From Anaerolineales bacterium (GTDB lineage Bacteria > Chloroflexota > Anaerolineae > Anaerolineales > UBA6663), in NCBI GenBank assembly GCA_035291605.1, contig DATDRS010000172.1, forward strand, positions 1 through 58,579: a DNA stretch of 58,579 nt, given 5' to 3'. The notes under the pieces are model-generated. The model ran no database searches, was not told where the DNA came from, and worked only from the letters and a program-made list of their open reading frames with translations. This document shows positions 5,155 to 27,153 of the stretch, in pieces (positions within the stretch are counted from its first letter, which is position 1; each line of letters opens with the position of its first letter). The position numbers and the translations under genes are program-made.

Positions 5155-6447
5155 TCAACCGGTATCGTAATGCCGCGCCATCCACGAGCCGACGGTGAGG
5201 GCTGAGGCGAGGTCGTCGCCATTGTTCACCTGGTAGGCCGAGATGCCCACTGCCCAGAGCGCGCCCACCAGCTCCGCGTTGTCGTGCACGCCGCCGAAGC
5301 TGGCCGGGTTCAGGACGACCGCCGCCATGCGCAGCCCCCGGCGTTTGAGCGCCTGCGCCGCGATCACCCAGCGCATGTCCCAGGAAGACGTGATCAAAAT
5401 GACTGAGGCGCCACGAGGCATCTGATCGGACTCGATCGCCAGCGCATCGTGAAAGCGCATCTTGCCCCGCGAACGGAAGACGGCCAGCGTTTCGAGCAGC
5501 TTGGTCAATTGGCGCTCGCCGCGATCTGGCTGGGTGACCTCGCGCGATTGGCCGTAAGCCACCAGCCCCACCGAACGGCCGCGCCGGATGAAAAACTGGG
5601 CGAGTGAGGCGGCAATCGTCACGCCATATTCCTCGGTGCTGGGCGGCAGGGTCACGACCCGATCCTGCCAGGCGGTCCACAGGGCCTCGTCGGCGCTCAG
5701 GACAGGCGTGGGCAGCGGCTTCGCGGCCTGCGCCGCCTCGTCGCCGTCGAGGAACAACCAGATGTCTGACAGCGGGTCAAGCTCGAACTCTTTGACGATC
5801 AGCCGGTCCCGCCGGGCGGTGGAGGGCCAGTGAATGCGGTTGAACGAGTCGCCCGGCGCGTAATCGCGCACGCCGGCTGCATTGGCGGTCACGTAGTGGG
5901 TGCGGCGGCGCAGCGCGTCGCCGCCGGAGAGCGTGCCCAACGGCAGCGTGAAATCGCGCAAGTCAACCGTCGCAGGGTAGATGACGACGTGCGTGGTCTG
6001 CGGGATATGGCGGGTGACCTGGAAGAGGCCGAAGGGGTCGCCCGAGGTCAACGCGAGCGGGCCCAGGCGAAAGCGCCCGCGCTGGCGGCAGATGGTGCGG
6101 ACGACCCAGGCGCGCTCGCTGCGCGGCCCCAGCGACATGACGACGAGGCTGGCCTCGTGGCCCGGCAGATTCGAATGGTCGCGCACCTCCAGCCACAGCT
6201 TGGGCATGCGGCTTGTGTTCCGCACCGTCAGGCGCTCTTCGAGCGGGCGGCCCACCTGGGCGCGCAGAGCGCGCGTGTGGCGCAAAAGGCGAATCCCCCG
6301 CAGTCCGGTCCACGTCCAGAGCACCGCCACGACGATCAACGTGAGCCACACGTAAAACAAATTGAAGAACAGGTCACGGCCGGTGACGATGGCGCCGACG
6401 AGGCAGGCGGCGAGGAGCAGAAAGACGATGAGGCGACGGGAAGTCAT
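5155..6447 (-). CDS. DUF58 domain protein (MoxR partner, vWA-like)
   Basis: 430 aa. Two N-terminal TM helices and the DUF58 signature 'YAPGDSFNRIHWPSTARRDRLIVKEFE'. Lies directly downstream of a MoxR ATPase gene. Confidence 0.85.
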   Translation of the reverse strand: MTSRRLIVFLLLAACLVGAIVTGRDLFFNLFYVWLTLIVVAVLWTWTGLRGIRLLRHTRALRAQVGRPLEERLTVRNTSRMPKLWLEVRDHSNLPGHEASLVVMSLGPRSERAWVVRTICRQRGRFRLGPLALTSGDPFGLFQVTRHIPQTTHVVIYPATVDLRDFTLPLGTLSGGDALRRRTHYVTANAAGVRDYAPGDSFNRIHWPSTARRDRLIVKEFELDPLSDIWLFLDGDEAAQAAKPLPTPVLSADEALWTAWQDRVVTLPPSTEEYGVTIAASLAQFFIRRGRSVGLVAYGQSREVTQPDRGERQLTKLLETLAVFRSRGKMRFHDALAIESDQMPRGASVILITSSWDMRWVIAAQALKRRGLRMAAVVLNPASFGGVHDNAELVGALWAVGISAYQVNNGDDLASALTVGSWMARHYDTG

Positions 6448-6522
6448 GGGGCAAATGGCAGCCAGCGGTTGGCTTATGGCCTATGGCGCGGGGCAGACAT
6501 CGGAGGCGCCATCAGCGGAACG

Positions 6523-7590
6523 CTATGCTCTGCGGAGCGCGCTCCCGCCCGGGACGGGCACGCTGGCGAGGATATCCTTGATGACCGAGCGGGCGCTCAC
6601 ATCCTTAATGCGCGCCGCCGGGCCGATGATGATGCGATGGGCCAGCGCGGCCTCGGCCAGCGCTTTGACGTCGTCGGGGATCACGTAATCGCGCCCGTTG
6701 AGGGCCGCGCGGGCCTGCGCGGTCCGGAACAGCGCCAGGCTGCCGCGTGGGCTGGCGCCAAGATATACGTCCGTATGCTTGCGCGTCTGGGCCACGATTT
6801 CGACCAGATAGCTCTTGATCAGCGGGTCCACATAGACCTTACGGACTTCCTGCTGGGCTGCCAGCAAGTCTTCGACCTGAACCACTTTCTCCAGGCGATC
6901 AATCGGGTGCGCAAATTGCTGCCGGTCGAGGACGTTGATCTCCTCAGTCGCCGAGGGATAGCCGAGCGAGAGGCGCAGGAGGAACCGGTCGAGCTGGGCC
7001 TCAGGCAGAGGAAAGGTGCCCTCGTATTCAATCGGGTTCTGCGTGGCGAGCACCATGAAGGGCGCCGGGAGGCGATGCGTCACGCCGTCCACCGTCACCT
7101 GTTTTTCTTCCATCGCCTCGAGCAAAGCCGCCTGCGTCTTGGGCGTGGCGCGGTTGATTTCATCGGCCAGCACAATCTGGGCCATGATGGGGCCGGGGCG
7201 GAATTCGAACTCACGCGTCAGCTGGTTGAAGATGGAGACGCCCGTCACATCGCTGGGCAGCATGTCGGGCGTAAATTGAAGGCGGTTGAACGTGGTGCCG
7301 ATGGACCGCGCCAGCGCCTTGGCCAGCATGGTTTTGCCGACCCCGGGCACGTCTTCGATGAGCAAGTGTCCCTGGCATAACAGGCCCACGACCGTCAACT
7401 GCACTTCGTGAGTTTTGCCGACAATCACCTTCTCGACGTTCACAACCAGGCGGTCGGCAACTGACTTGATGCTCGCCAGCGACATGCTTTCGCTCGCGGT
7501 TTTGCCGTCGGGCGGCGGGTTTTCAGGAAGCGCCTGGGCAACCCTCTCGCTCCCAGACCGACTTCGATCCTTGTTGAGGCTCGTGCTCAT
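6523..7590 (-). CDS. MoxR-family AAA+ ATPase
   Basis: 355 aa. Walker A '[15 protein letters not shown]', Walker B/sensor '[23 protein letters not shown]', and a typical MoxR C-terminal lid. Confidence 0.9.
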
Positions 7591-7671
7591 GCTCTGCTCC
7601 TGTCATGCCTGAAGAATGGGGAAGTGAGTGCTGATCGCACCCGTGTATTACGCCGCGTCATGCCGGTCGGT

Positions 7672-8412
7672 TCAAAACTGAAACCGGGCGCGGCGGTAAT
7701 CGCGCATCCGCCGGTAGGTCAGCCGGGCGACGGTGTACAGGGCCTTGAAAATCTCGGTCTGCGAAATCTTGGAAGCTCCCATCGTCCGGTCGTGAAAAAG
7801 AATCGGCGCCTCGGCCACACGCCAGCCGCGCTGCTCGACCAGGAACAGCATCTCGATCAGGAACGAATAGCCGGACGAGAAGATGCGGTCGAGCGGGATA
7901 GAGTCTAACACAGCCCGGCGATACAGGCGGAAACCCGCCGTGACATCGCCGGCTTTGAGGCCCAACGCCAGATGCGCGACGAGGTTGGCCGTCCGGCTGA
8001 GCAGACGGCGAAGCCAAGGCGAATCCACCGCCCCGCCCCCCGGCGCGTAGCGCGACCCAATGACCAGGTCGGCCGAGGCGCTGCGCGCGAGCATCTCCGG
8101 AATGTAGCGGGGATGGTGCGAGAAATCGGCGTCCATGGTGAGGAGGTAATCGGCGCCCAACGCGAAGGCGCGCCGGAAGCCCGCGAGGTAGGCCGTGCCC
8201 AACCCAAGCTTTCCCGCGCGGTGGATCACCTCCACCCGCCCCGGGTGCTCCGCCGCGAACCGGTCGGCGAGGCCGCCGGTGCCATCCGGGGAATTGTCGT
8301 CCACAATCAGCACGCGAAGATCACACGGCAGAGCCAACAGCTCGGGGATGAGACGAGCGACATTCTCCAGTTCATTATACGTGGGCAGAATGACAAAAAT
8401 GGACAAGGTCAT
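7672..8412 (-). CDS. GT2 polyprenol-phosphate sugar synthase (polyprenol monophosphomannose synthase / CsbB-like)
   Basis: 246 aa. Contains '[11 protein letters not shown]', 'VDDNSPDGT' and the DXD motif 'MDADFSH'. Soluble GT2 of the Ppm1/DPM1 type. Last gene of the co-directional membrane-glycosylation operon. Confidence 0.85.
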
Positions 8413-17482: not shown

Positions 17483-18184
17483 ATGAGTCGGGTCAGCGCG
17501 CTTTTTCGGTTGCAGGAAATTGACCTGGAGCTTGACGCCCATGCCGCGCGGCTGCGCAGGATCGAGGCCGAAATGGGCGATAGCCCGGTGGTCCGCGCGG
17601 CCCAGCGCAAAATCGTCGAGGCCGAAGCCCAGATTGACACGGCGCACGTCGGCCTGCGCGCCGGCGAGCAGGATATTCAGGCGCTCAGTGAAAAAATCGC
17701 CGAGGTCGAGGAGCAGTTGTACGGCGGCAGGGTCACCAACACGAAGGAACTGCAAGACCTGCAGAGGGATGTGGAATCCCTCCAGCGCCGCCGGGGGGCG
17801 CTGGAGGAAAAACATCTCGAGGCGCTCATCAAAGTCGAAAGCGTCGAGGCGGAACTGGCCGCGCTCAACGCCCAGCTGTCACAGGTCGAGGACCAGGCGG
17901 CTCAGGTCAACACCTATCTCGTCGCCGAACGAGAAAAGTTGAGGGGGCGGATGGCCCGGCTGGAAGATGAGCGGGAAGCCGCGCTGGTGTCCGTGCCCGC
18001 CGGAGACTGGGAAGTGTATGACCGTCTGCGCCAGGCCAAGAAGGGCCGGGCCGTGACGCGCCTCGAAGAGGGCGTGTGCGGCGCCTGCGGCGTCGCGCCG
18101 TCCTCCTCCCAGCTTCAAATTGCGCGACAGGGCAGCGAACTGATGCGCTGCCCCAACTGCGAGAGGATCATCTACGCGGAATAA
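17483..18184 (+). CDS. coiled-coil C4 zinc-ribbon protein (COG1579/DUF164-like)
   Basis: 233 aa. A long heptad-rich helical region and the C-terminal 'CGACGV..(20 aa)..CPNCERIIY' zinc ribbon. Confidence 0.75.
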   Translation: MSRVSALFRLQEIDLELDAHAARLRRIEAEMGDSPVVRAAQRKIVEAEAQIDTAHVGLRAGEQDIQALSEKIAEVEEQLYGGRVTNTKELQDLQRDVESLQRRRGALEEKHLEALIKVESVEAELAALNAQLSQVEDQAAQVNTYLVAEREKLRGRMARLEDEREAALVSVPAGDWEVYDRLRQAKKGRAVTRLEEGVCGACGVAPSSSQLQIARQGSELMRCPNCERIIYAE

Positions 18185-18186
18185 TT

Positions 18187-20622
18187 ATGCGCCTGCCTCC
18201 TATTCCCCCCATTGACGCCTTTTCGTTCTGGCTCGGCTTTGCCTCGGCTGCATTCATCTTCCTGTTGCTCTACTGGTTCCAGCGGCCGCTGCGCCTCGCG
18301 CGCCAGATACTGTCCGAGCTGTTCCAACACCTGCGCGAGGCCCTCACCGCCGGGACCGAGAAACGGCTCCGCGAGGACACGCTGCGCTTCGCGCAGACCG
18401 CGCACCTCGCCGGGACGGTCTTTGCACTGAACGAAATTCTGCTCCCGCCGCGACTGCTGTATCCCGAGCCGGCGCTTGACCCCACGACTCCCCCGCCCGA
18501 CGAGGACCTGGCTGCCATCATTCCCATCATCCCCGAATGGCCGGACCTGGCCGGAATTTACCACGCGCCCACGTTGGGCGTGGAGGAAGTTTTCGCGAAG
18601 GACGCCAACATCATGGTCATCGGCGGGCCGGGAGGGGGCAAGTCCACGCTCCTCGCCCACCTGGCCACGCGGGCCGCGCAGGACGACGAAAAACTGTTCC
18701 CCGGCGGCGTCACGCCGATCTTCGTCCACGCGGGCGACCTCGAACTGCCCAGGCCGCCCAAAGCCGATGTCGCCCAGCCGCTCATCGCCGCGGCGCTGGC
18801 GCGCGTCTCGACGCTCACGGCCTCGCAATTGCCCCAGCATCTGCGCGGGCGGCTGAAAAACTATAAGTGCGCCATCCTCATTGACGGCCTGGATGAACTG
18901 CCGCCCGCGCAGATCGCGCCGATCGCCAGCTGGCTTGAGGAGTTTCAGAGGGAATACAAACATCACCGCCTCATCGTCGCCGCCGGGCTGTGGGGTTACG
19001 GCCCGCTCGTGAGTCTCGGCCTGGCGCCGATCATGATCGCGCCGTGGAACGCGGACGATTACCGGGAACTGATCCAGAAGTGGACGACTGCGTGGGATCA
19101 GGCTATCCGTGCGCGCCGGAAGAAAGCCGCCGGGCCAGGTGAGGTGGACCTGACCATCATGCGAGGTTGGCTCGCGAACGGCAACCAGGGCCGCACCATT
19201 TTCGAGATCACACTCAAAATATGGGCGGCGCTGGCGGGCGATACGCGCGGCAGCCGACCGGTAGACTGGCTCGAGGCCTACCTCCTGCGGCACAACCTGA
19301 AGCCCACCAGCCTCGCCGCGCTCGCACAAATGGCCACGGCGATGCTCAGCCAGCAGGAATATCTGGGCCTCCTGCGCAAGGAAGCGGCCGCGATCGGCGA
19401 TACTGCGCTTAAGGGACCGGACGGAAAATCCGAGATGGATAGCGACGATTTCCTCGACGGCCTGATCGCGCGGCGCTTGCTGGCGAAGCACGCGAAAGAC
19501 CGGGTGAGTTTCGCGCACGGCCTGACGGCGGCCTACTGCACCGCCCAGCGCCTGGCCGCCGAACCGGATACGATCCTCGGCGCCTCATCCGCTTGGGCGC
19601 GAGCGCTGTACTTCTTCGCCGCGCTGGGGGACCTGACCTCGGCGGCAGGTCGCAACCTGACGCAAGCCGCCGACCTCATGCAGAGCGAGTTGCTCGCCTG
19701 CGCTTTGTGGCTGCGCGACTCCCCGGCCAACGCCCGCTGGCGCGCCGAGGTGTTCAAGCGCCTGGCCCGGTTGATGCTGGACCCCAACCAGCCTGAGAAC
19801 CTGCGCCTGCGCGGGCTTACGGGCCTGGCGGCTTCCAACGACCCGGCGGTGGTTGCATTGTTCAAGCAAGCCCTTGCCAGCCCGGACCCCTTCAGCCGCC
19901 GGCTGGCGACGCTGGGCCTGGGCGCGCTGGGCGATGGGAGCCTCGTCCCGCAGTTAGTCGCGCTCTTCGCTGACCCGTACCTCGACGTGCGCTGGGCGGC
20001 GGCGCTGGCGCTCACCCACATCGGAACCGATCAGGCGATTGACGGCCTGGCGCAGGGACTGGTGCAGGGCGACGACGCGCTCAAACAGGCCTGCGCCCAG
20101 GCCATCGCGCGAAACGCGGAGGTCGGCCCCGAGCTGCTCAAGGAAGCCATCGCTCACGAAGACCTCGCCGTGCGCCGCGCGGCCCTCTTCGGCCTGGCCG
20201 ATCTCAAGACGGATTGGGCGCTCAAACAGATCGAGGACGTGCAGACCAAGGAGCAGCAGTGGATTGTCCGCAACGCGGCGGTCTCGATGATCGAGCGGCT
20301 GAAAAGCCCCAGCCAGGTCACGCTCCAACCCTACGCGCCGCCCGAATCGCAGGGCTGGCTGGTGGCGTGGGCCGCCAGCAAGGGCACGGGCGTGCCGCCG
20401 GGCAAAGGCGCGATTGACCTGCTTAACCGGGCGCTGACGGAAGGCGAGGAGCGCGTCCGCCTCGCGGCGGCGCAATCGCTGGGCCGCCTCGGCGAACCGA
20501 CGGCCGCGCGCGAGCTCTACGCCGCGCTGCGCGATCCCGCCCCCCTCATCCGCGACGCCGCCTTCCGCGCCCTCGCCCACATGGCCGCCCTCGCCGGGCA
20601 AAAACTGGCCGCGCCGGTCTGA
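18187..20622 (+). CDS. membrane-anchored NACHT-type STAND NTPase with C-terminal HEAT (PBS-lyase-like) repeats
   Basis: Trimmed to the ATG at 18187, 2 nt after the upstream TAA. TM helix 'FWLGFASAAFIFLLLYWF'. Walker A 'VIGGPGGGKSTLLAHL'. Walker B 'CAILIDGLDEL'. Repeated 'D..VR.AAA.ALG..G' HEAT units in the last ~300 aa. Confidence 0.7.
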   Translation: MRLPPIPPIDAFSFWLGFASAAFIFLLLYWFQRPLRLARQILSELFQHLREALTAGTEKRLREDTLRFAQTAHLAGTVFALNEILLPPRLLYPEPALDPTTPPPDEDLAAIIPIIPEWPDLAGIYHAPTLGVEEVFAKDANIMVIGGPGGGKSTLLAHLATRAAQDDEKLFPGGVTPIFVHAGDLELPRPPKADVAQPLIAAALARVSTLTASQLPQHLRGRLKNYKCAILIDGLDELPPAQIAPIASWLEEFQREYKHHRLIVAAGLWGYGPLVSLGLAPIMIAPWNADDYRELIQKWTTAWDQAIRARRKKAAGPGEVDLTIMRGWLANGNQGRTIFEITLKIWAALAGDTRGSRPVDWLEAYLLRHNLKPTSLAALAQMATAMLSQQEYLGLLRKEAAAIGDTALKGPDGKSEMDSDDFLDGLIARRLLAKHAKDRVSFAHGLTAAYCTAQRLAAEPDTILGASSAWARALYFFAALGDLTSAAGRNLTQAADLMQSELLACALWLRDSPANARWRAEVFKRLARLMLDPNQPENLRLRGLTGLAASNDPAVVALFKQALASPDPFSRRLATLGLGALGDGSLVPQLVALFADPYLDVRWAAALALTHIGTDQAIDGLAQGLVQGDDALKQACAQAIARNAEVGPELLKEAIAHEDLAVRRAALFGLADLKTDWALKQIEDVQTKEQQWIVRNAAVSMIERLKSPSQVTLQPYAPPESQGWLVAWAASKGTGVPPGKGAIDLLNRALTEGEERVRLAAAQSLGRLGEPTAARELYAALRDPAPLIRDAAFRALAHMAALAGQKLAAPV

Positions 20623-20660
20623 GAGGAGGAACTCTTAATCGCTGACGCCAGGTGACTGAA

Positions 20661-20685
20661 GGCGCTGATATTGCCTCTCAGCGCC
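20661..20685 (+). terminator. hairpin downstream of the NACHT gene (no U-tract)
   Basis: GGCGCTGA (20661-20668) pairs with TCAGCGCC (20678-20685), with a 9-nt loop. Not followed by a T run, so terminator function is uncertain. Confidence 0.25.
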
Positions 20686-20764
20686 ACCGAGTCTCGTCAA
20701 CGCCTCAGCGATCCCCGCTTGCCCCGTCCCCCGCAGACGACTATACTTCAACTCAGGGTAATCA

Positions 20765-21229
20765 TTGATGGCCGATGGCGAATCCCTGCGGCGTGTGTAT
20801 CTGGACGTTTGTGCCTTATCGCGCCCATTCGACGACCAGACTCAGGCGCGCATCCGGCTTGAAACAGATGCTGTACAACTCATCTTGAGCAATGCCCGGC
20901 AGGGTAAACTTCACCTCATCACGTCGGCGGCTCACACTGTTGAGATTGCCGCAATAGATGAAGCTGAAGAACGCAACACGCTCGAACGATGGCTGAACGA
21001 ACTCGGCCACCGCCCACGCGTCAATTTGCGCAAAGCACGCCAGCGCGCTGAAGAATTGATGCGGATGAAGATTGGCCCAGCGGACGCGGCTCACATCGCC
21101 TCTGCCGAACAGGCCGAGGCCGATTTCGTTACAGTAGACGACCGACTGCTAAAGCAGGCTCAACGCGGCAGCCTTTCCGTCTGGGCAGGAACGCCCCTGC
21201 AATATTGCGAGAAGGAAAACCTGAAATGA
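20765..21229 (+). CDS. PIN-domain ribonuclease toxin
   Basis: 154 aa. PIN acidic residues lie in 'VYLDVCAL', 'ETDAV', 'PADAAHIASAE' and 'FVTVDDRLLK'. The stop overlaps the start of a small downstream ORF (ATGA at 21226-21229). Confidence 0.7.
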   Translation: MMADGESLRRVYLDVCALSRPFDDQTQARIRLETDAVQLILSNARQGKLHLITSAAHTVEIAAIDEAEERNTLERWLNELGHRPRVNLRKARQRAEELMRMKIGPADAAHIASAEQAEADFVTVDDRLLKQAQRGSLSVWAGTPLQYCEKENLK

Positions 21230-21435
21230 AGACGACCCGCTACTTGACCGAGGAAGAACTGATTGAACGTGGGGTGGAAGCCCTGATGAAGGCTCTCGGC
21301 CCAGTCGAAACCGCGCGCTTCCTCAACTTACGCAGCGCCCGACGACTCGAGTCGGTCAAGCGCCATCGGCGCTGGCAGGCCAGACTGAACAAGAAACAGT
21401 TCTTTGACCAGGTGTTCGGAGGCTTTTCCCGATGA
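21226..21435 (+). CDS. small putative cognate antitoxin of the PIN protein
   Basis: 69 aa from the ATG at 21226 ('MKTTRYLTEEELIERGVEALMKALGPVETARFL'). Translationally coupled to the PIN gene. Function is inferred from position only. Confidence 0.45.
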   Translation: MKTTRYLTEEELIERGVEALMKALGPVETARFLNLRSARRLESVKRHRRWQARLNKKQFFDQVFGGFSR

Positions 21436-21511
21436 ACGACGGCTTACTGCTTACGCCGCTGAATTGATTGAAGCCGAAGAGTTCCACCCATTGCCGACTC
21501 CGGCGGCCTAG
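21422..21511 (+). pseudogene. DUF433-like antitoxin, C-terminal remnant
   Basis: This frame reads 'AFPDERRLTAYAAELIEAEEFHPLPTPAA*', like the '..YP.LT.EDI.AALAYAAEL...' tail of DUF433 proteins. It has no N-terminal part and no start. It ends 2 nt before the DUF5615-like ATG. Confidence 0.35.
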
Positions 21512-21513
21512 CC

Positions 21514-21600
21514 ATGCGCTCTCTGATAGACGCCGACCTGCCGCGTTCTGCGGCTGACGTCGTGCGCCGTCACGGTCATGTGATTGACCTAACCCCGCTG
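21514..21600 (+). pseudogene. DUF5615-like (PIN-like) toxin, N-terminal remnant
   Basis: 'MRSLIDADLPRSAADVVRRHGHVIDLTPL' matches the characteristic DUF5615 N-terminus ('M..L.DENLP....L...GH.V'). Similarity stops near 21600, where G+C drops. The rest of the 108-aa ORF looks like noise. Confidence 0.45.
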
Positions 21601-21659
21601 ACTTGTCTCTCCATCTCAGCGCCTCACTCCCTTTCAACGTCTCAGCGGTTCAAACCCAT

Positions 21660-21688
21660 TTGCCTCGCCCGCCGCGCGTGGCTATATT
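21660..21688 (+). promoter_or_regulatory. candidate sigma70-like promoter upstream of the reverse transcriptase
   Basis: TTGCCT (21660-21665), 17-nt spacer, TATATT (21683-21688). A second TATAAAAT lies at about 21699. It would give a leader of about 85-90 nt before the ATG at 21779 (SD-like AGGGG 7 nt upstream). Confidence 0.35.
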
Positions 21689-21778
21689 TCGGAAACAGTA
21701 TAAAATTGGCTTCTGCTCGCACGCACATCCTTACTCGTTGTAGATGGCCATATCAGGGTCACCTACAAAGGGGTTCAT

Positions 21779-23329
21779 ATGGAGCAACTCAAGCCAGAGT
21801 CTTTGGATTGGGCACTTACACACATACAGAGATTTGGTGACACAGATATTTTTCCTGTGCCATTTGAATACGAGGCGATTAAGCATAGTTGGAGTGGCCT
21901 CAGAGATAAGTTGGCAACAATAGACATAGCCGCTTATGAATGTCGCTCTCTACATAGGACACTTGTCCCTAAACCTAAGGGGGGCTATCGGGTTGCTATC
22001 CAACTTGACCCAATAGATGCCCTGATTTACACAGCTTCAATCTACGAGGCAGCGGATGTAATTGAAAAACAGAGAATTCCAGCAGAACAGAAGGTCGCCT
22101 GTTCTTACCGAGTTCAACCTGATGCCAAAGGACAATTATTCAGGACAACAAATGGGTGGAACGATTATCATGAGAAATCCCAATTGCTGGCCGAGTCAGG
22201 AAAATACAACTTTGTCGTTGTAGCTGATATTGCCGATTTCTATAATCAAATAAGCCATCACAGAATTGAAAATGCATTGGAGATAGCGGGTGTAACCCCA
22301 TCCCGAGCCAAGAGCATTGAACGCTTCTTGGGAAACCTGACTGCCCTCCAATCTCGAGGAGTGCCGGTAGGCCCAACAGGCTCGATAGTATTGGCCGAGG
22401 CCTGTTTGAGTGACGTGGACTTATTCTTACTCCGAAAAGGGTATACTCACACTCGTTATGTGGACGATTTCCGAATATTTTGCATCTCCCGCAGTCAAGC
22501 CTATTCAGCCTTGCATGACCTCTCTGAGTATCTTTATACAGCCCATAGGTTAGCCCTTCAATCAGACAAGACAAAACCCTTGCCAGTAGAAAGCTTTCTC
22601 GAAGAGGAGCTATTCGACCCGCAAAAAGTGGAAGAGCAGAGAAAGAGGGATAAAATCAACGAAACTCTTGAGGCGATCTTCTTGTCGACGGGATACGTGA
22701 TTACTGAAGATGACCTACCGCTGGTAGACATACAGCATGTTGTTCGAGAAAATCTCGTGGAATTATTTGCGGGTTGCTTATCAACCTTACCCCTACCACA
22801 AGGGCTTGCTCGTTATCTGCTTAGAAGAGGAGCAATACTGCGAACAGCTGTTTTGCAGGAGTTCGTTCTGAATAATCTTGAGGTCTTGTCCCCAGTATTT
22901 AGAGATGCCATGCTGTACCTACTAAGAACCTCACAAGCCAAGACCGCCACAAGGATTGGAAGCGCTCTGATCCATTTTGCAAAGACGTCAGACTTAGCAT
23001 TTCTCCCATATCTTCGCATGTGGTTGTTGCACATACTAACGGAGAAATTTGCCATTGAATTTGGGCCCTCGATCACAGAACTGTGTGAAAACACAGGTGA
23101 TAAACTTCGCGTTCGTCCTCGAGCTCTACTTGCCCGAGAGTTGCATCACATAGATTGGGTTCGCGTAGAAAAGGAAACATGGAACAACTATGGTTCGTGG
23201 GACAAGAGAGCTATCATCTGGTCAGCGAGGATATTACCCGAGGATGAGAGAAAATACTGGCTAAAAAACGTTGCAGGCGCTGGAGACCTGCTGGACGCAG
23301 CGGTAGCTAAAGCCGCAGCTGAATTGTAG
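21779..23329 (+). CDS. stand-alone reverse transcriptase, Abi/UG (defence-associated RT)-like, with helical C-terminal domain
   Basis: 516 aa. RT motifs: 'LVPKPKGGYRVAIQLDPIDALIY', 'VVVADIADFYNQISHHRI', 'GVPVGPTGSIVLAEACLSDVD', 'RYVDDFRIF' (YVDD at 22457-22468) and 'LALQSDKTK'. The C-terminal ~250 aa are Leu-rich and helical. G+C is much lower than in the flanks. Confidence 0.85.
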   Translation: MEQLKPESLDWALTHIQRFGDTDIFPVPFEYEAIKHSWSGLRDKLATIDIAAYECRSLHRTLVPKPKGGYRVAIQLDPIDALIYTASIYEAADVIEKQRIPAEQKVACSYRVQPDAKGQLFRTTNGWNDYHEKSQLLAESGKYNFVVVADIADFYNQISHHRIENALEIAGVTPSRAKSIERFLGNLTALQSRGVPVGPTGSIVLAEACLSDVDLFLLRKGYTHTRYVDDFRIFCISRSQAYSALHDLSEYLYTAHRLALQSDKTKPLPVESFLEEELFDPQKVEEQRKRDKINETLEAIFLSTGYVITEDDLPLVDIQHVVRENLVELFAGCLSTLPLPQGLARYLLRRGAILRTAVLQEFVLNNLEVLSPVFRDAMLYLLRTSQAKTATRIGSALIHFAKTSDLAFLPYLRMWLLHILTEKFAIEFGPSITELCENTGDKLRVRPRALLARELHHIDWVRVEKETWNNYGSWDKRAIIWSARILPEDERKYWLKNVAGAGDLLDAAVAKAAAEL

Positions 23330-23341
23330 GTAAGCCTCTAT

Positions 23342-23470
23342 TTCCTCGCCTACACAACTTTCGCCACGAAGACGGAATTCGCTTTCAGCCCATCTATATT
23401 TGCCATAGTCGGTCCCAATGGAAGCGGCAAGTTAAATTTAGTAGATGCGGTGCGCTGGGGCTTGGCGAGC
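23342..23470 (+). pseudogene. SMC/ABC-type ATPase N-terminal (Walker A) fragment
   Basis: Reads '[41 protein letters not shown]'. Compare the SMC N-terminus 'GFKSFA.K....[24 protein letters not shown]'. It has no start codon. It is in the same frame as, and immediately after, the RT stop. Similarity ends near 23465, where G+C rises. Confidence 0.5.
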
Positions 23471-23551
23471 AATCCTTCGGCCTGCTCGCCAGGCCCTGCG
23501 CCAAATGCACCCCATGGGCCCATCGAATTGGCGCATGGTGAGACTCATTGT

Positions 23552-24796
23552 ATGATTCTCGCTATGCCTAAGAGACGAGAAAGGCGCGCTGCGCCCACAC
23601 ATGATCGCCGCCCCGAGGCGTCCCCACAGGTTGACGGCGCGCCGGCCACGGTTCTGGTCGTGGACGACGAGCCGCACAACCTCGAGGTGGTGACGCATTT
23701 TCTGGAAGCCGAGGGCTTCCAGGTGGTCACGGCGGAGGACGGCGAGCAGGCCCTCGCCGTGGCGACGGGCGCGGCCCCGGACGTGATCCTGCTCGACGTG
23801 ATCATGCCTGCCCCCGACGGCTTCGAGGTCTGCCGCCGCCTCAAGGCCGACCCGGCGACGGTTTTTATCCCCATCGTCATCCTCACCGCGCTGAAGAGCA
23901 CTAAAGATCGCATCACCGGCGCGGCCGCCGGCGCCGACGATTTTCTCTCCAAGCCGTTTGACCACGTCGAGCTGGTGACGCGCGTCAGATCGCTGGTGCG
24001 CGTCAAGCGCCTCCACGATCAGGTTGAGGCCTACAGCCGGGAGCTGGAAATCCGCGTCGCCGAGCGCACGGCTGAGCTGCAGCAGGCGTTGACGCAGCTC
24101 CAGGAGTTCGACCGGCTCAAGTCGGAGTTCATCGCCAACGTCTCGCACGAACTGCGCACGCCGCTCCTGCACGTGAAAGGCTACCTGGACCTGCTGGCCA
24201 ATGGCGCGCTGGGCGCCGTAACGGCGGAACAGCTGCAGGGGGCTGCCATCGCACAGGAGGCGGCGAGCCAACTGGACCGTGGGGTGCAGGATATCGTGGA
24301 TTTCCGCGATTTTGGGGACCGGCGCTTCCATTTTGAACGAGTGGCCGTTGCGGATGCCGCTCAGGCGGCCAGGGAGGCGATCACGCCGTTTGCGGCGCGC
24401 CGGGGGGTGACGGTGACGCTAACGCTGCCGCCGGACCTGCCGCCGGTTTGGGCCGACCGCGCGGCGGTGGCGCGTGTGCTGCGCCATTTGCTCGACAACG
24501 CGGTGAAGTTCAGCCCTTCGGGCGGTGTGGTGCGGGTGATCGGCGAGGAACGAGAGGGCAGCGTCCGGATTGCCGTGCTCGATCACGGTGAGGGCATCCC
24601 CCCGGAGAAACTCGACCGCATCTTCGATCTCTTTTACCAGGCCGACGGCTCGACGACCCGCCGGGCGGGCGGCCTGGGACTGGGGCTGGCGCTCGTCAAA
24701 ATGCTGCTCGACGCCCACGCGGCTCACCTACAGGTCGAGAGCGAAGTCGGTCGGGGCAGCACGTTTTATTTTGACCTGTCGGCCGCCGCGCCGTGA
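23552..24796 (+). CDS. hybrid response-regulator receiver / histidine kinase (soluble)
   Basis: Start trimmed to the ATG at 23552. Receiver '[27 protein letters not shown]'. H-box 'SHELRTPL'. N-box '[10 protein letters not shown]'. G-boxes 'DHGEGIP' and '[10 protein letters not shown]'. Confidence 0.85.
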
Positions 24797-24870
24797 AAGG
24801 GAAAAGTCCTGGGCAGAACGCCCGATGAATGGGATGAGTAGAGACGTTCCGCGGCTAAAGCCCAGAATAG

Positions 24871-26085
24871 CTATTGGGGGGCCTCGCTCTTCCGCCGGGT
24901 TTCGCGCAGTTGCCCCAGGTGAACCCGGTCGTGATCGAGAATCCAGCCGACAATCTCGGCGAGGTGGGTGGGGCCGAAATAGGCGTGCCGCGCCGGGCGG
25001 GCCCATACGGCCTCGGGCTGCCCGGTGAGAAAAGCGTATAGCTCCTTGCGCGCGGCGATGAAGCCCTGCGAGGCCTCCGGTCCGGATTCGGATTGATAGT
25101 TCCGCTCAGCCGCCCACGGGTCGGCGTCAATGCCGACGAGGAAAGGGTTCTCGGAGTCGACGACGGTCTGGAGGCGCGGGAGGTGAATCTCGCGATCCAC
25201 GTCGCGCAGGTGGCAGGCAATTTCCACGAGTGACCACTCGGCCTCGGCCGGCCGGGAATGCCAGGCGGCCTCCGTCAGGCCTTCCAGCGCGCCCAGCGCC
25301 GCCGCCAGGCTCCCCATCAAAAGGTAGGGCAGCGCCGTCGCCGGGGCAGGGGGCATGGCGAGAGTCGGAAGGGCCGTCTGCGCCCACTCCAGGAACGTAT
25401 CCAGGTCACCGATGCCGGTGGGGTGCAGCCGGGTGCGGGAGACATCTGGCACGGCGCTTCCCGGAGGCGCGATCCAGAATTGCGCGACGCCAAGCTCCGC
25501 CGCCGGGACGATGTCGTCGCTCCAGTCGTTGCCGACGACGAGCACTTCCTCCGTCCGCCTCCCCAGGTGCGCCAGGATTTCGGCGAAGTATTCCGGGTGC
25601 GGCTTGGCGAAATGGCTGTTCTCGTAACTGGTGATGCGCGCGTAGGGAAAATCGTCAATCCCCGCCCAGCGCAGGCGTTCCTGAATAGCCGAGAGCGGGA
25701 AGAGCGGCGTCGTGGCGATGACGACCTGGTAGCCCTGCGCGAAGGCCCACTCCATCACGGCGCGCGCGGCGGGGAGGCGCGCGGTCAACCCGCGCAGTTC
25801 GGTGAAGCCGGTCCTGTAGAAGGTCTCGATGCGCGGCCGCCAGGCTTCCGCCTCCCAGCCGAGGGCGGGGTAAAAGCGGTCGGCAAAGACTGAGTCTAGA
25901 ACCCGTGCCGGGTCGGCGTTGGCGAGCATGGCGCGCGTGCCGGTGAGCAGCTCGGCGATGAATTGTTCCGGGCGGACGTCGGCGGCGAAATGCCGCGTCA
26001 GCCGGTCAAAGTAGGCCGGGACGAATATCCCCAAATCGTTGCCCAGCAAGGTGTCGTCGAGGTCGAAGAGCAGGGCGCTGATCAT
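24871..26085 (-). CDS. HAD-superfamily hydrolase fused to a DinB-like domain
   Basis: 404 aa. HAD motif I 'LLFDLDDTLL'. The C-terminal four-helix DinB-type region has His-rich motifs ('IACHLRDVDREIH', 'ILDHDRVHLGQL'). Confidence 0.7.
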   Translation of the reverse strand: MISALLFDLDDTLLGNDLGIFVPAYFDRLTRHFAADVRPEQFIAELLTGTRAMLANADPARVLDSVFADRFYPALGWEAEAWRPRIETFYRTGFTELRGLTARLPAARAVMEWAFAQGYQVVIATTPLFPLSAIQERLRWAGIDDFPYARITSYENSHFAKPHPEYFAEILAHLGRRTEEVLVVGNDWSDDIVPAAELGVAQFWIAPPGSAVPDVSRTRLHPTGIGDLDTFLEWAQTALPTLAMPPAPATALPYLLMGSLAAALGALEGLTEAAWHSRPAEAEWSLVEIACHLRDVDREIHLPRLQTVVDSENPFLVGIDADPWAAERNYQSESGPEASQGFIAARKELYAFLTGQPEAVWARPARHAYFGPTHLAEIVGWILDHDRVHLGQLRETRRKSEAPQ

Positions 26086-26126
26086 GCGGGGCGAGGCGCG
26101 GGGGCGGGAGGAGGCCGGGAGTCTGG

Positions 26127-26453
26127 CTACTCGTCCACCTGGAGCTTAATTTCGTGGCAATGCCCGCAGCCCACTTCGGGTTCGGGCACGTCGGCGAGCG
26201 TTTTCGTGCAGGTGGCCGAGACGGCTACTTTGCGCCCCAGCCCGACCCATGTTTTGGCGACGCGCGCTTCCAGCACCAGGTGCGGACAGGCGTTGGCCCG
26301 GACGATTTTAGGGACCGGACAGTCGCGGCACAGCCCGGGCGTCCACTTCTCACTCGCCGCATTGAGCGCGATCAGACGGCACTCTTCGTGGTTGCGTCCG
26401 CGATAATAGTTCGCGTAGAAGAACTTGCACTCGAAGCCGGCGGGGGTGCGCAT
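26127..26453 (-). CDS. small Cys-rich hypothetical protein
   Basis: 108 aa with 9 Cys, including 'CRDCP' and 'GCGHCHE'. Co-directional with efp and 29 nt downstream of it. Confidence 0.4.
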   Translation of the reverse strand: MRTPAGFECKFFYANYYRGRNHEECRLIALNAASEKWTPGLCRDCPVPKIVRANACPHLVLEARVAKTWVGLGRKVAVSATCTKTLADVPEPEVGCGHCHEIKLQVDE

Positions 26454-26482
26454 GGGAAGCGGGCGCGACGCACTGGGCTGGG

Positions 26483-27040
26483 TCAGGCGCGGGTCAGGTA
26501 CTGCCCGGTCTCGGTGTTCACCCGGATCGTGTCGCCCACGTTGACGAAGAGGGGGACCTGGACCCTCAGCCCGGTCTCGGTGGTGACCATCTTGTTCGCG
26601 CCGGTGGCGGTGTCGCCTCTGACGGCCACTTCGGCCTCGACGACCCGGAGGTCAACCGCGGCGGGCAGTTCGACGTCGATCGGCTGGTCCTGGTAGAAGG
26701 TCAATTTGACTTCCAGGTTCTCTTTGAGGAAGCTCACGTTTTCGCCCAGCGTCTCGGCGCTCAACGGCGTCTGCTCGTACGTCTCGGTGTCCATGAAATA
26801 ATAGAAGTGGCCGTCGGTGTAGATATACTGGGCGATGTGGTGGTCGAGCCGGATGTCCTGCACCCGGTCGCCGGACTGGAAGGTGCGCTCGGTGTTGACG
26901 CCCGTCTTGAGGTTGACCAGCCGGGTGCGGATGGTGGCGTTCCCCCGTCCAGGCTTGTTGTGGGAATAGTCCAGTACTTTGTAGAGCTGGCCGTCGAGCT
27001 CGAAGGTCACGCCTTTGCGAAGAGCATTCACGTCAATCAT
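26483..27040 (-). CDS. efp: translation elongation factor P
   Basis: Trimmed to the ATG at 27040 (AAGGAAG SD upstream). Starts 'MIDVNALRKGVTFELDGQLYKVLDYSHNKPGRGNATIRTRLVNLKTG'. Typical three-domain EF-P length (185 aa). Confidence 0.9.
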   Translation of the reverse strand: MIDVNALRKGVTFELDGQLYKVLDYSHNKPGRGNATIRTRLVNLKTGVNTERTFQSGDRVQDIRLDHHIAQYIYTDGHFYYFMDTETYEQTPLSAETLGENVSFLKENLEVKLTFYQDQPIDVELPAAVDLRVVEAEVAVRGDTATGANKMVTTETGLRVQVPLFVNVGDTIRVNTETGQYLTRA

Positions 27041-27153
27041 GTCAAAACTTCCTTTCAGTGACCCCCCCGATTCAACAAACGGCGCAGGCTGAGTTGGACG
27101 GCCTGCGCACGCGGAGACATACGGAAGGTCAGGCGCGATTATAACGGTATCTC

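Follow-up and report, generated by a model that had tools for sequence, protein, structure and literature searches.

An intact reverse transcriptase (RT) gene at 21779..23329 (+ strand) of the window, by which we mean the whole 58,579-nt stretch of Anaerolineales bacterium contig DATDRS010000172.1 (GCA_035291605.1) analyzed here, almost certainly encodes a member of the DRT8/UG7 family of Class 1 UG/Abi RTs, and is the partner-less UG7 variant as published rather than an undescribed system. An Anaerolineales-like Chloroflexota bacterium took up this minimal single-gene cassette by horizontal transfer. The best overall explanation, which we favor with moderate confidence, is a horizontally acquired, stand-alone DRT8 defense RT that would synthesize single-stranded DNA (ssDNA) in the manner of DRT4 and DRT6. 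The family has been described, so the gene is not to be treated as a new system; it is an unremarkable member whose modest interest lies in being a clean single-gene example. DRT8 belongs to those DRT types whose mechanism has yet to be established, and the stand-alone form is the simplest, with one gene, no non-coding RNA (ncRNA) and no partner. The natural population data, with one fixed insertion site and several independent knock-out alleles, may bear on the cost of carrying such a gene.

Family assignment and predicted structure

The open reading frame (ORF) encodes 516 amino acids from an ATG start codon that is consistent with the homologs, whose N-terminus reads MDxLxxxSLDWA; its coordinates, strand and start are those given in an earlier note on this DNA, and the YVDD motif, placed there at 22457-22468, corresponds to codons 227-230. 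The protein matches the PADLOC Drt8 model from end to end (E 1.4e-145, 484 bits; residues 4-514 on profile positions 2-490 of 493). The runner-up is UG21 with 161 bits, followed by UG23, UG32, UG22, UG20 and UG19 (100-161 bits including UG21), at most one third of the Drt8 score, and a defense role for these six groups has been rated inconclusive (PMC9226505). PADLOC scores against Drt4 and Drt6 are 77 and 67 bits, and profile scores are low for Drt2 (15 bits) and Drt3a (50 bits). A distant UG7 member (L093) that shares 36% identity with the window RT scores 502 bits on the Drt8 model.

UG7 was named DRT type 8 after RT-dependent protection of E. coli against T5 (PMC9226505; Mestre et al. 2022, NAR 50:6084). 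The family comprises two variants that are congruent with its phylogeny, one with an adjacent PD-(D/E)XK nuclease (150 members) and one without an associated gene (165 members) (PMC9226505). The UG7 system tested against T5 was the nuclease-associated variant, in which the nuclease active site was required, and Mestre et al. suggested that nucleases act in trans for the partner-less members (PMC9226505). The earlier note had held that the subtype of the window RT could not be assigned by eye and had called the gene its best candidate for an undescribed system. Both statements have to be dropped, because the full-length Drt8 match (484 bits, against 161 for UG21) and the 2022 description of the family, partner-less variant included, and of its anti-phage activity make the subtype assignable and the system known, with hundreds of relatives across phyla. 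Its remark that template, product and effector are unknown holds for DRT8 generally: a May 2026 review describes a ‘dedicated mechanism not yet established’ (PMC13213688), and our literature searches for a DRT8/UG7 mechanism found no mechanistic, biochemical or structural study.

A word-indexed search returned 824 relatives of the window RT, and an exhaustive search of 50%-identity cluster representatives returned 446 at E <= 1e-30 and 1274 at E <= 1e-10. Named relatives come from Trichocoleus, Chromobacterium, Vibrio cholerae, Methylobacter, Thalassotalea, Burkholderiaceae, Variovorax and a Chloroflexota metagenome-assembled genome (MAG). In the databases searched, the nearest relative outside the same population is 65% identical. 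There was no match in the phage collections, and the plasmid collections contain RTs only ~30% identical to the window RT, which probably belong to other UG groups. The window RT resembles stand-alone DRT8/UG7 in its full-length profile match, its length (~515 aa), its RT core followed by an alphaRep domain, the lack of an associated gene and the defense genes that surround its homologs. No difference from that variant was detected; the window copy is at most 65% identical to any other sequence in those databases and resides in a high-G+C Chloroflexota host. With nuclease-associated DRT8/UG7 it shares the RT family and the PADLOC model, but those loci have an adjacent PD-(D/E)XK nuclease and the window RT has none beside it.

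We also considered whether the gene might belong to another RT class (retron, group II intron or diversity-generating retroelement [DGR]) or be an assembly chimera. Such a reading could draw on sub-threshold NCBIfam matches to the group II RT/maturase TIGR04416 (57 bits) and the retron St85 RT (29 bits), which are weak scores expected from the shared RT fold and lie far under the respective cut-offs of 300 and 235 bits; Drt4 (72 bits, cut-off 450) and AbiA (12 bits, cut-off 250) are likewise under theirs. RVT_1 is the sole Pfam domain in the protein, and neither a maturase nor an endonuclease domain is present. Rfam scans of the region detect no RNA family, be it of introns, retrons or any other kind, there is no template/variable repeat pair (only short, chance-level repeats in 21200-23800), and the insert junctions are repeated at 99.8-100% identity in many independent assemblies. 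We therefore regard this possibility as extremely improbable, ruled out by the profile, domain, RNA, repeat and assembly results together. The earlier note had likewise placed the protein among the UG/Abi (DRT-type) RTs, apart from retrons, group II introns and DGRs, and had seen no maturase or endonuclease tail.

Conservation was assessed on an alignment of 43 close relatives (A1) and one of 53 representatives at 28-50% identity (A2). Y227, D229 and D230 are invariant in A1, along with ~65 further positions over the whole length of the protein. The invariant residues of A2 are K65, R71, E96, R99, D150, H161, S192, G194, P196, G198, D214, R226, D229, D230 and K264, and residue 227 is Y or F. 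A non-conserved YVDD had been named in the earlier note as a finding that would speak against its reading; both aspartates are invariant in the 43 close and the 53 distant relatives. The RT fingers/palm core (21944..22612, + strand; ~residues 56-278) is delimited by the YVDD motif, the family-wide invariant residues and a PDB-profile alignment to the DRT4/UG15 palm.

An AlphaFold model was built from the 43-sequence alignment (mean predicted local distance difference test [pLDDT] score 89.0, predicted template modeling [pTM] score 0.85). In this model, fingers and palm extend to ~278 and are followed by a long helix, a short linker (~305-314) and then helices only to the C-terminus, with pLDDT mostly 90-97 in the C-terminal domain. 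AlphaFold and Foldseek together delimit an all-helical repeat domain at 22619..23326 (+ strand; ~residues 281-516), and its predicted architecture is that of alphaRep, defined as the C-terminal domain of Class 1 UG/Abi RTs (PMC9226505). The last ~235 residues are thus modeled with confidence as helices, in line with the all-helical C-terminal ~250 aa proposed from the letters of the translation.

A sequence-profile search of the PDB found no DRT8 structure. The top sequence matches were DRT4/UG15 (4e-16), Abi-P2 (9e-15) and a 9wy8 chain (2e-14) that the fold search names DRT6, followed by AbiK (4e-7). UG15/DRT4 also ranks first in Foldseek (E 1e-12, template modeling [TM] score 0.5-0.58), ahead of DRT6 (TM 0.59/0.61) and then AbiA, Abi-P2 and AbiK. 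The top alignments cover ~450-600 columns, and ~540-600 (full length) for DRT4, DRT6, AbiA and AbiK. DRT9 is lower in the ranking, DRT2 and DRT3 are outside the top 50, and a DGR RT structure is a partial, lower-ranked fold match. DRT4 (UG15) and DRT6 (UG12), the closest solved folds, are also single-gene systems of ~500-540 aa with an RT and an alphaRep domain; identity to them is 14-18%, however, and with a Drt4 score of 72 bits against a cut-off of 450 they are not the same family. AbiK, AbiA and Abi-P2 share full-length fold similarity (Foldseek E 1e-10 to 1e-8) and the combination of RT and helical C-terminal domain, but they are more distant than DRT4 and DRT6, and AbiA has an additional domain.

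Gene neighborhoods, partner search and leader region

We gathered homolog loci from genomes (6), metagenomes (80) and viral contigs (14), plus the loci of individual homologs, and clustered all ORFs >= 80 aa within 2.5 kb of the RT in ~75 non-redundant loci. No partner family recurs in these loci beyond 3-4 syntenic relatives. Same-strand ORFs that start <=200 nt downstream of the RT are mutually unrelated even at E = 5; these close downstream ORFs include an ABC-2 permease, a CBASS cyclase, an HD protein, RtcB, a dehydratase and HsdM. A PADLOC scan of the 92 longest neighbor ORFs (49 loci) matched 354 defense models, among them pAgo with its restriction endonuclease partner, type I restriction-modification subunits, BrxH/DrmD-type helicases of the BREX and DISARM kind and mads, and no model was common to more than 4 of the 92 ORFs. 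A hidden partner gene is thus ruled out, as nothing recurs in the clustering, the permissive ORF comparison or the PADLOC batch scan.

In the window, the interval from the RT stop (23329) to the start of the downstream kinase gene (23552) holds an SMC_N pseudogene fragment but no gene, and no PD-(D/E)XK nuclease is adjacent. The absence of an adjacent nuclease and of any recurrent partner places the gene in the stand-alone variant, still within UG7, and agrees with the earlier description of a stand-alone RT with no recognizable effector. Homologs reside among defense genes without a fixed partner, as in the published stand-alone variant; this is a tally of neighbors and not a formal enrichment test. 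The earlier note had named a constant housekeeping neighborhood as evidence against a defense RT, and the neighborhoods found are variable and rich in defense genes.

Examples of single neighbors are an OLD nuclease (L002), a CBASS cyclase (L016) and a PD-T4-6-like kinase (L015); the OLD-family ATPase beside the L002 RT is a separate system. In L009 (JGI Ga0568886_0002338, 6001-8271), a 59%-identical RT resides within a complete BREX operon, between an N6_N4_Mtase-family methyltransferase gene and brxL. This RT is followed after 21 nt by a tightly coupled ORF of 226 aa, found only in L009 and L010, whose D...EAK motif suggests that it could be a PD-(D/E)XK nuclease. Neither this ORF nor a 317-aa ORF in L093 has a Pfam or PADLOC match. 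Both, and a 205-aa ORF in L006, are singletons and have no relative in the window. L093 is a probable member of the nuclease-associated DRT8 variant.

The RT gene is preceded by a 188-nt non-coding leader (21591..21778, + strand; G+C 0.527) that contains a promoter-like site identified by promoter scan (TTGCCT-17-TATATT, 21660-21688, + strand) and a Shine-Dalgarno-like AAAGGGG (21767-21773, + strand), 5 nt before the start codon. The presence of this leader bears on whether the enzyme could instead be RNA-templated, like DRT2, DRT3a and DRT9, with an ncRNA, its own mRNA or an RNA of host or phage as the template for an effector cDNA of specific or repetitive sequence. DRT3 RTs, which also carry alphaRep, use a structured ncRNA (PMC9226505; PMC13213688), UG7 has no invariant priming tyrosine (see below), and up to ~145 nt downstream of the ORF are common to related subclades. 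Between related cassettes, nucleotide similarity is limited to ~30-56 nt before the start codon and ~35-145 nt past the stop codon. However, the window flanks match none of 70 upstream and 65 downstream homolog regions, so that the leader is conserved in 0 of 70 homologs; the 201-nt stretch 21590-21790 is no better folded than shuffled sequence (z -0.31); and a scan of the region with Rfam, at permissive as well as gathering thresholds, gave no match, including none to group II intron RNA. The RT stop abuts an unrelated pseudogene fragment, which indicates that no downstream element was carried along. The core and the fold are also nearer to template-independent enzymes than to DRT9, and neither DRT2 nor DRT3 is among the top folds.

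Taken together, flank BLAST, inspection of the 70 nt upstream, folding and Rfam detected no structured ncRNA beside the RT, a result that a short or very divergent RNA could escape. DRT2, DRT3 and DRT9 are, like the window RT, UG/Abi RTs of the anti-phage defense type, but they need a conserved structured ncRNA beside the gene, and none was detected here or in the homologs. We consider an RNA-templated enzyme unlikely.

Four homolog loci (L044, L045, L053 and L055) share a conserved stretch comprising the first 108-145 nt after the RT stop, and L037 and L039 share 132 nt. In these subclades the shared stretch may serve as a terminator, or be a small element that moves along with the cassette. 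The 108-145-nt stretch is absent from the window copy.

Proposed mode of DNA synthesis

To return to the stand-alone DRT8 defense RT, an anti-phage role of the window gene is likely, and protein-primed, template-independent synthesis is a tentative proposal made by analogy. Its closest relatives in sequence and fold are template-independent ssDNA synthases, and the same mode is on this basis suggested for DRT8. DRT4 and DRT6 are single-gene, protein-primed, template-independent ssDNA synthases, whose product is normally degraded by host exonucleases and accumulates when ORF55 of phage T5 shields its 3' end (PMC12783706). AbiK, AbiA and Abi-P2 also make untemplated, protein-primed ssDNA, as summarized in the same work (PMC12783706). 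By analogy with these five enzymes, the window RT would oligomerize, use one of its own side chains as the primer and extend ssDNA without a nucleic-acid template; build-up of this ssDNA during phage infection would halt the cell or the phage (abortive infection), with the effector being either the DNA product itself or a nuclease encoded elsewhere.

Several points weigh against this proposal. The mechanism would be carried over purely by analogy, across 13-18% identity and TM scores of ~0.5-0.6. Phage protection has been shown only for nuclease-associated UG7, where the nuclease is needed (PMC9226505). DRT3 RTs bear alphaRep and use an ncRNA template (PMC9226505; PMC13213688), and domain architecture alone is therefore no predictor of template independence. 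The priming Tyr125 of DRT4 is absolutely conserved in the DRT4 family (PMC12783706), whereas no invariant tyrosine was found across the UG7 alignment, where the values for the tyrosines are 91% for Y380, 89% for Y155, 79% for Y110 and 79% for Y306. PADLOC reports no defense system (including Avs/STAND) in the NACHT/HEAT protein and the PIN pair next to the RT, and the stop-codon and insertion sequence (IS)-type truncation alleles described below would also fit a gene whose function has become dispensable.

Priming sites differ between AbiK, Abi-P2, AbiA and DRT4 (PMC12783706), which means that homology cannot assign a priming residue in the window RT. Tyr125 of DRT4 has no demonstrable equivalent in it, and a priming tyrosine assigned by homology is ruled out, since none is invariant and the published sites differ among relatives. 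A more speculative variant, which we consider quite improbable, is that partner-less UG7 provides self-sufficient single-gene immunity through a chemistry unlike that of DRT4 and DRT6 (e.g., non-tyrosine priming at the invariant S192 or the nearly invariant S109, or protein-templated or patterned synthesis), with a host cost that would lead to recurrent loss alleles.

Acquisition, population alleles and insertion site

The G+C content of the RT ORF is 0.462, compared with 0.671 in the kinase gene downstream and 0.679 in the NACHT/HEAT gene upstream, and that of 23330-23460 is 0.496; a segment with 46% G+C is therefore embedded in DNA of 65-70% G+C. These values delimit a foreign segment from ~21591 to ~23460-23499, roughly 1.9 kb, the size that the earlier note had estimated for a low-G+C insert. 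The segment is not an assembly chimera, as its junctions recur in independent metagenome assemblies. JGI contig L012 matches window positions 20828-27068 at 99.8%, contig L011 spans 20547-23377, and 16 more contigs (ENA, JGI and Logan samples) match the region at 99.84-100% and cross both junctions or the left one.

The host gene downstream, a hybrid histidine kinase that starts at 23552, has its named relatives in Anaerolineales/Chloroflexota MAGs at 57-67% identity, and metagenome relatives reach 70%. One related genome, L125 (GCA_040961345.1), retains the right-hand synteny: kinase, HAD-DinB, a 106-aa ORF, EF-P, two ORFs and a DinG-like helicase. Upstream of its kinase are trigger factor, ClpP and ClpX, with no RT, toxin-antitoxin (TA) genes or NACHT/HEAT gene. 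The window RT is thus located in accessory DNA where synteny breaks off, and this and the foreign G+C (0.46 vs 0.67) bear out the horizontal acquisition proposed earlier. No empty site was found in the population: wherever a contig includes the adjacent PIN or antitoxin gene, the RT is there too, at an unchanged position; the RT is fixed at this site within the sampled population.

Across the 18 contigs that cover 20501-24900, the RT ORF differs by just two substitutions, each of which creates a stop codon: Y306* in L012 (22696 C>G) and S335* in L117 (22782 C>A). From the 90%-identity cluster come one further, conservative allele (I398V) and confirmation of the products of 305 and 334 aa; cluster members of 378, 151 and 45 aa were set aside, being contig-end artefacts or unrelated peptides rather than alleles. 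Stops make up 4.9% of the possible single-base changes in the ORF, and at least two stops among three substitution alleles have a probability of ~0.007. A further contig (L007) is identical to the window until 23129 (~codon 451), where a high-G+C element with an rve-family DDE transposase begins and cuts the RT to 455 aa; L007 either arose by IS-mediated rearrangement or is an assembly chimera formed at a repeated element. Y306*, S335* and the L007 junction all fall within the C-terminal helical domain. The stop and IS-type alleles are single consensus sequences, not read-level observations, and suggest that function has been lost repeatedly, as one would expect of a costly abortive-infection gene, or else reflect assembly noise. 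In the region 1804-3872 of L007, a low-G+C DUF4386 gene that is absent from the window follows the IS-type element.

These lesions in one population, with the gene fragments on both sides of the RT, could also mean that the gene is an orphan, either dependent on a trans-acting nuclease elsewhere in the genome, of which the window shows 58.6 kb, or a functionless passenger in decay. The required nuclease active site of the tested DRT8 and the trans nucleases suggested by Mestre et al. (PMC9226505) fit the first form. On the other hand, the partner-less layout is the rule in ~75 loci across many phyla and the whole 516-aa protein is strongly conserved, including the C-terminal domain, which argues for a self-sufficient, selected function. 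The intact allele is moreover the majority (at least 12 contigs), and single-gene RTs of such architecture can suffice, as in DRT4 and DRT6 (PMC12783706). An orphan gene of either kind is improbable in our judgment.

The right edge of the foreign segment is marked by an N-terminal pseudogene fragment of an SMC/RecF-type ATPase (23330..23499, + strand; G+C ~0.50), which retains a Walker A motif (GPNGSGK), lacks a start codon and has lost 1 nt near 23465; it directly follows the RT stop and is in frame with the RT. Once the lost base is put back, the resulting peptide of 57 aa matches Pfam SMC_N above cut-off (44.4 bits, E 1.7e-11). The SMC-like P-loop identity suggested earlier therefore stands, but the fragment does not end near 23465, the position of the frameshift. 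It is probably a piece of a gene of the donor or of an earlier island that was carried along. The possibility that it is the remnant of a DRT8 partner was ruled out, as no homolog RT has such a neighbor.

At the left junction, a short N-terminal gene remnant, MRSLIDADLPRSAADVVRRHGH (21514..~21590, + strand; G+C 0.62), is cut by the insert; it derives from a host or earlier-island gene and, judged by its residues, looks like the start of a small toxin-type gene. It reads into the insert as a chimeric 108-aa ORF (21514-21840), and gene callers fuse the two. Neither this ORF nor a 40-aa peptide has a Pfam match, and the remnant is too short for calling by hidden Markov model (HMM). HMMs were also unable to call the DUF5615/DUF433-like remnants, for which permissive tblastn gave noise only, and the DUF5615 label is one of resemblance. 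Farther left, at 21401-21510, between the antitoxin gene and the truncated MRSLIDADLPR... ORF, is a frame that ends in DERRLTAYAAELIEAEEFHPLPTPAA and a stop, which may represent the C-terminal end of a further small TA-type gene in decay, an assignment without HMM support.

A 13-nt near-repeat, CGC(C/A)GCTGAATTG, occurs in the left flank (21454-21466) and at the 3' end of the RT (23314-23326); it is probably meaningless, as chance alone would yield about two pairs of this kind in 2.6 kb. Terminal repeats of the insert are at chance level only (<=13 nt), and the nearest tRNA that might have served as a target site is 12 kb away.

The window contains a small accessory patch and no large defense island. 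The PIN gene reported beside the RT was recovered (PF01850, 28.9 bits). Directly upstream of the PIN pair, an 848-aa ORF (18076-20622; 811 aa by gene callers) encodes an AAA_22 P-loop and HEAT repeats, both of which pass their Pfam cut-offs; the NACHT label given to this NTPase earlier is weak at 24.6 bits, under the cut-off of 26.7.

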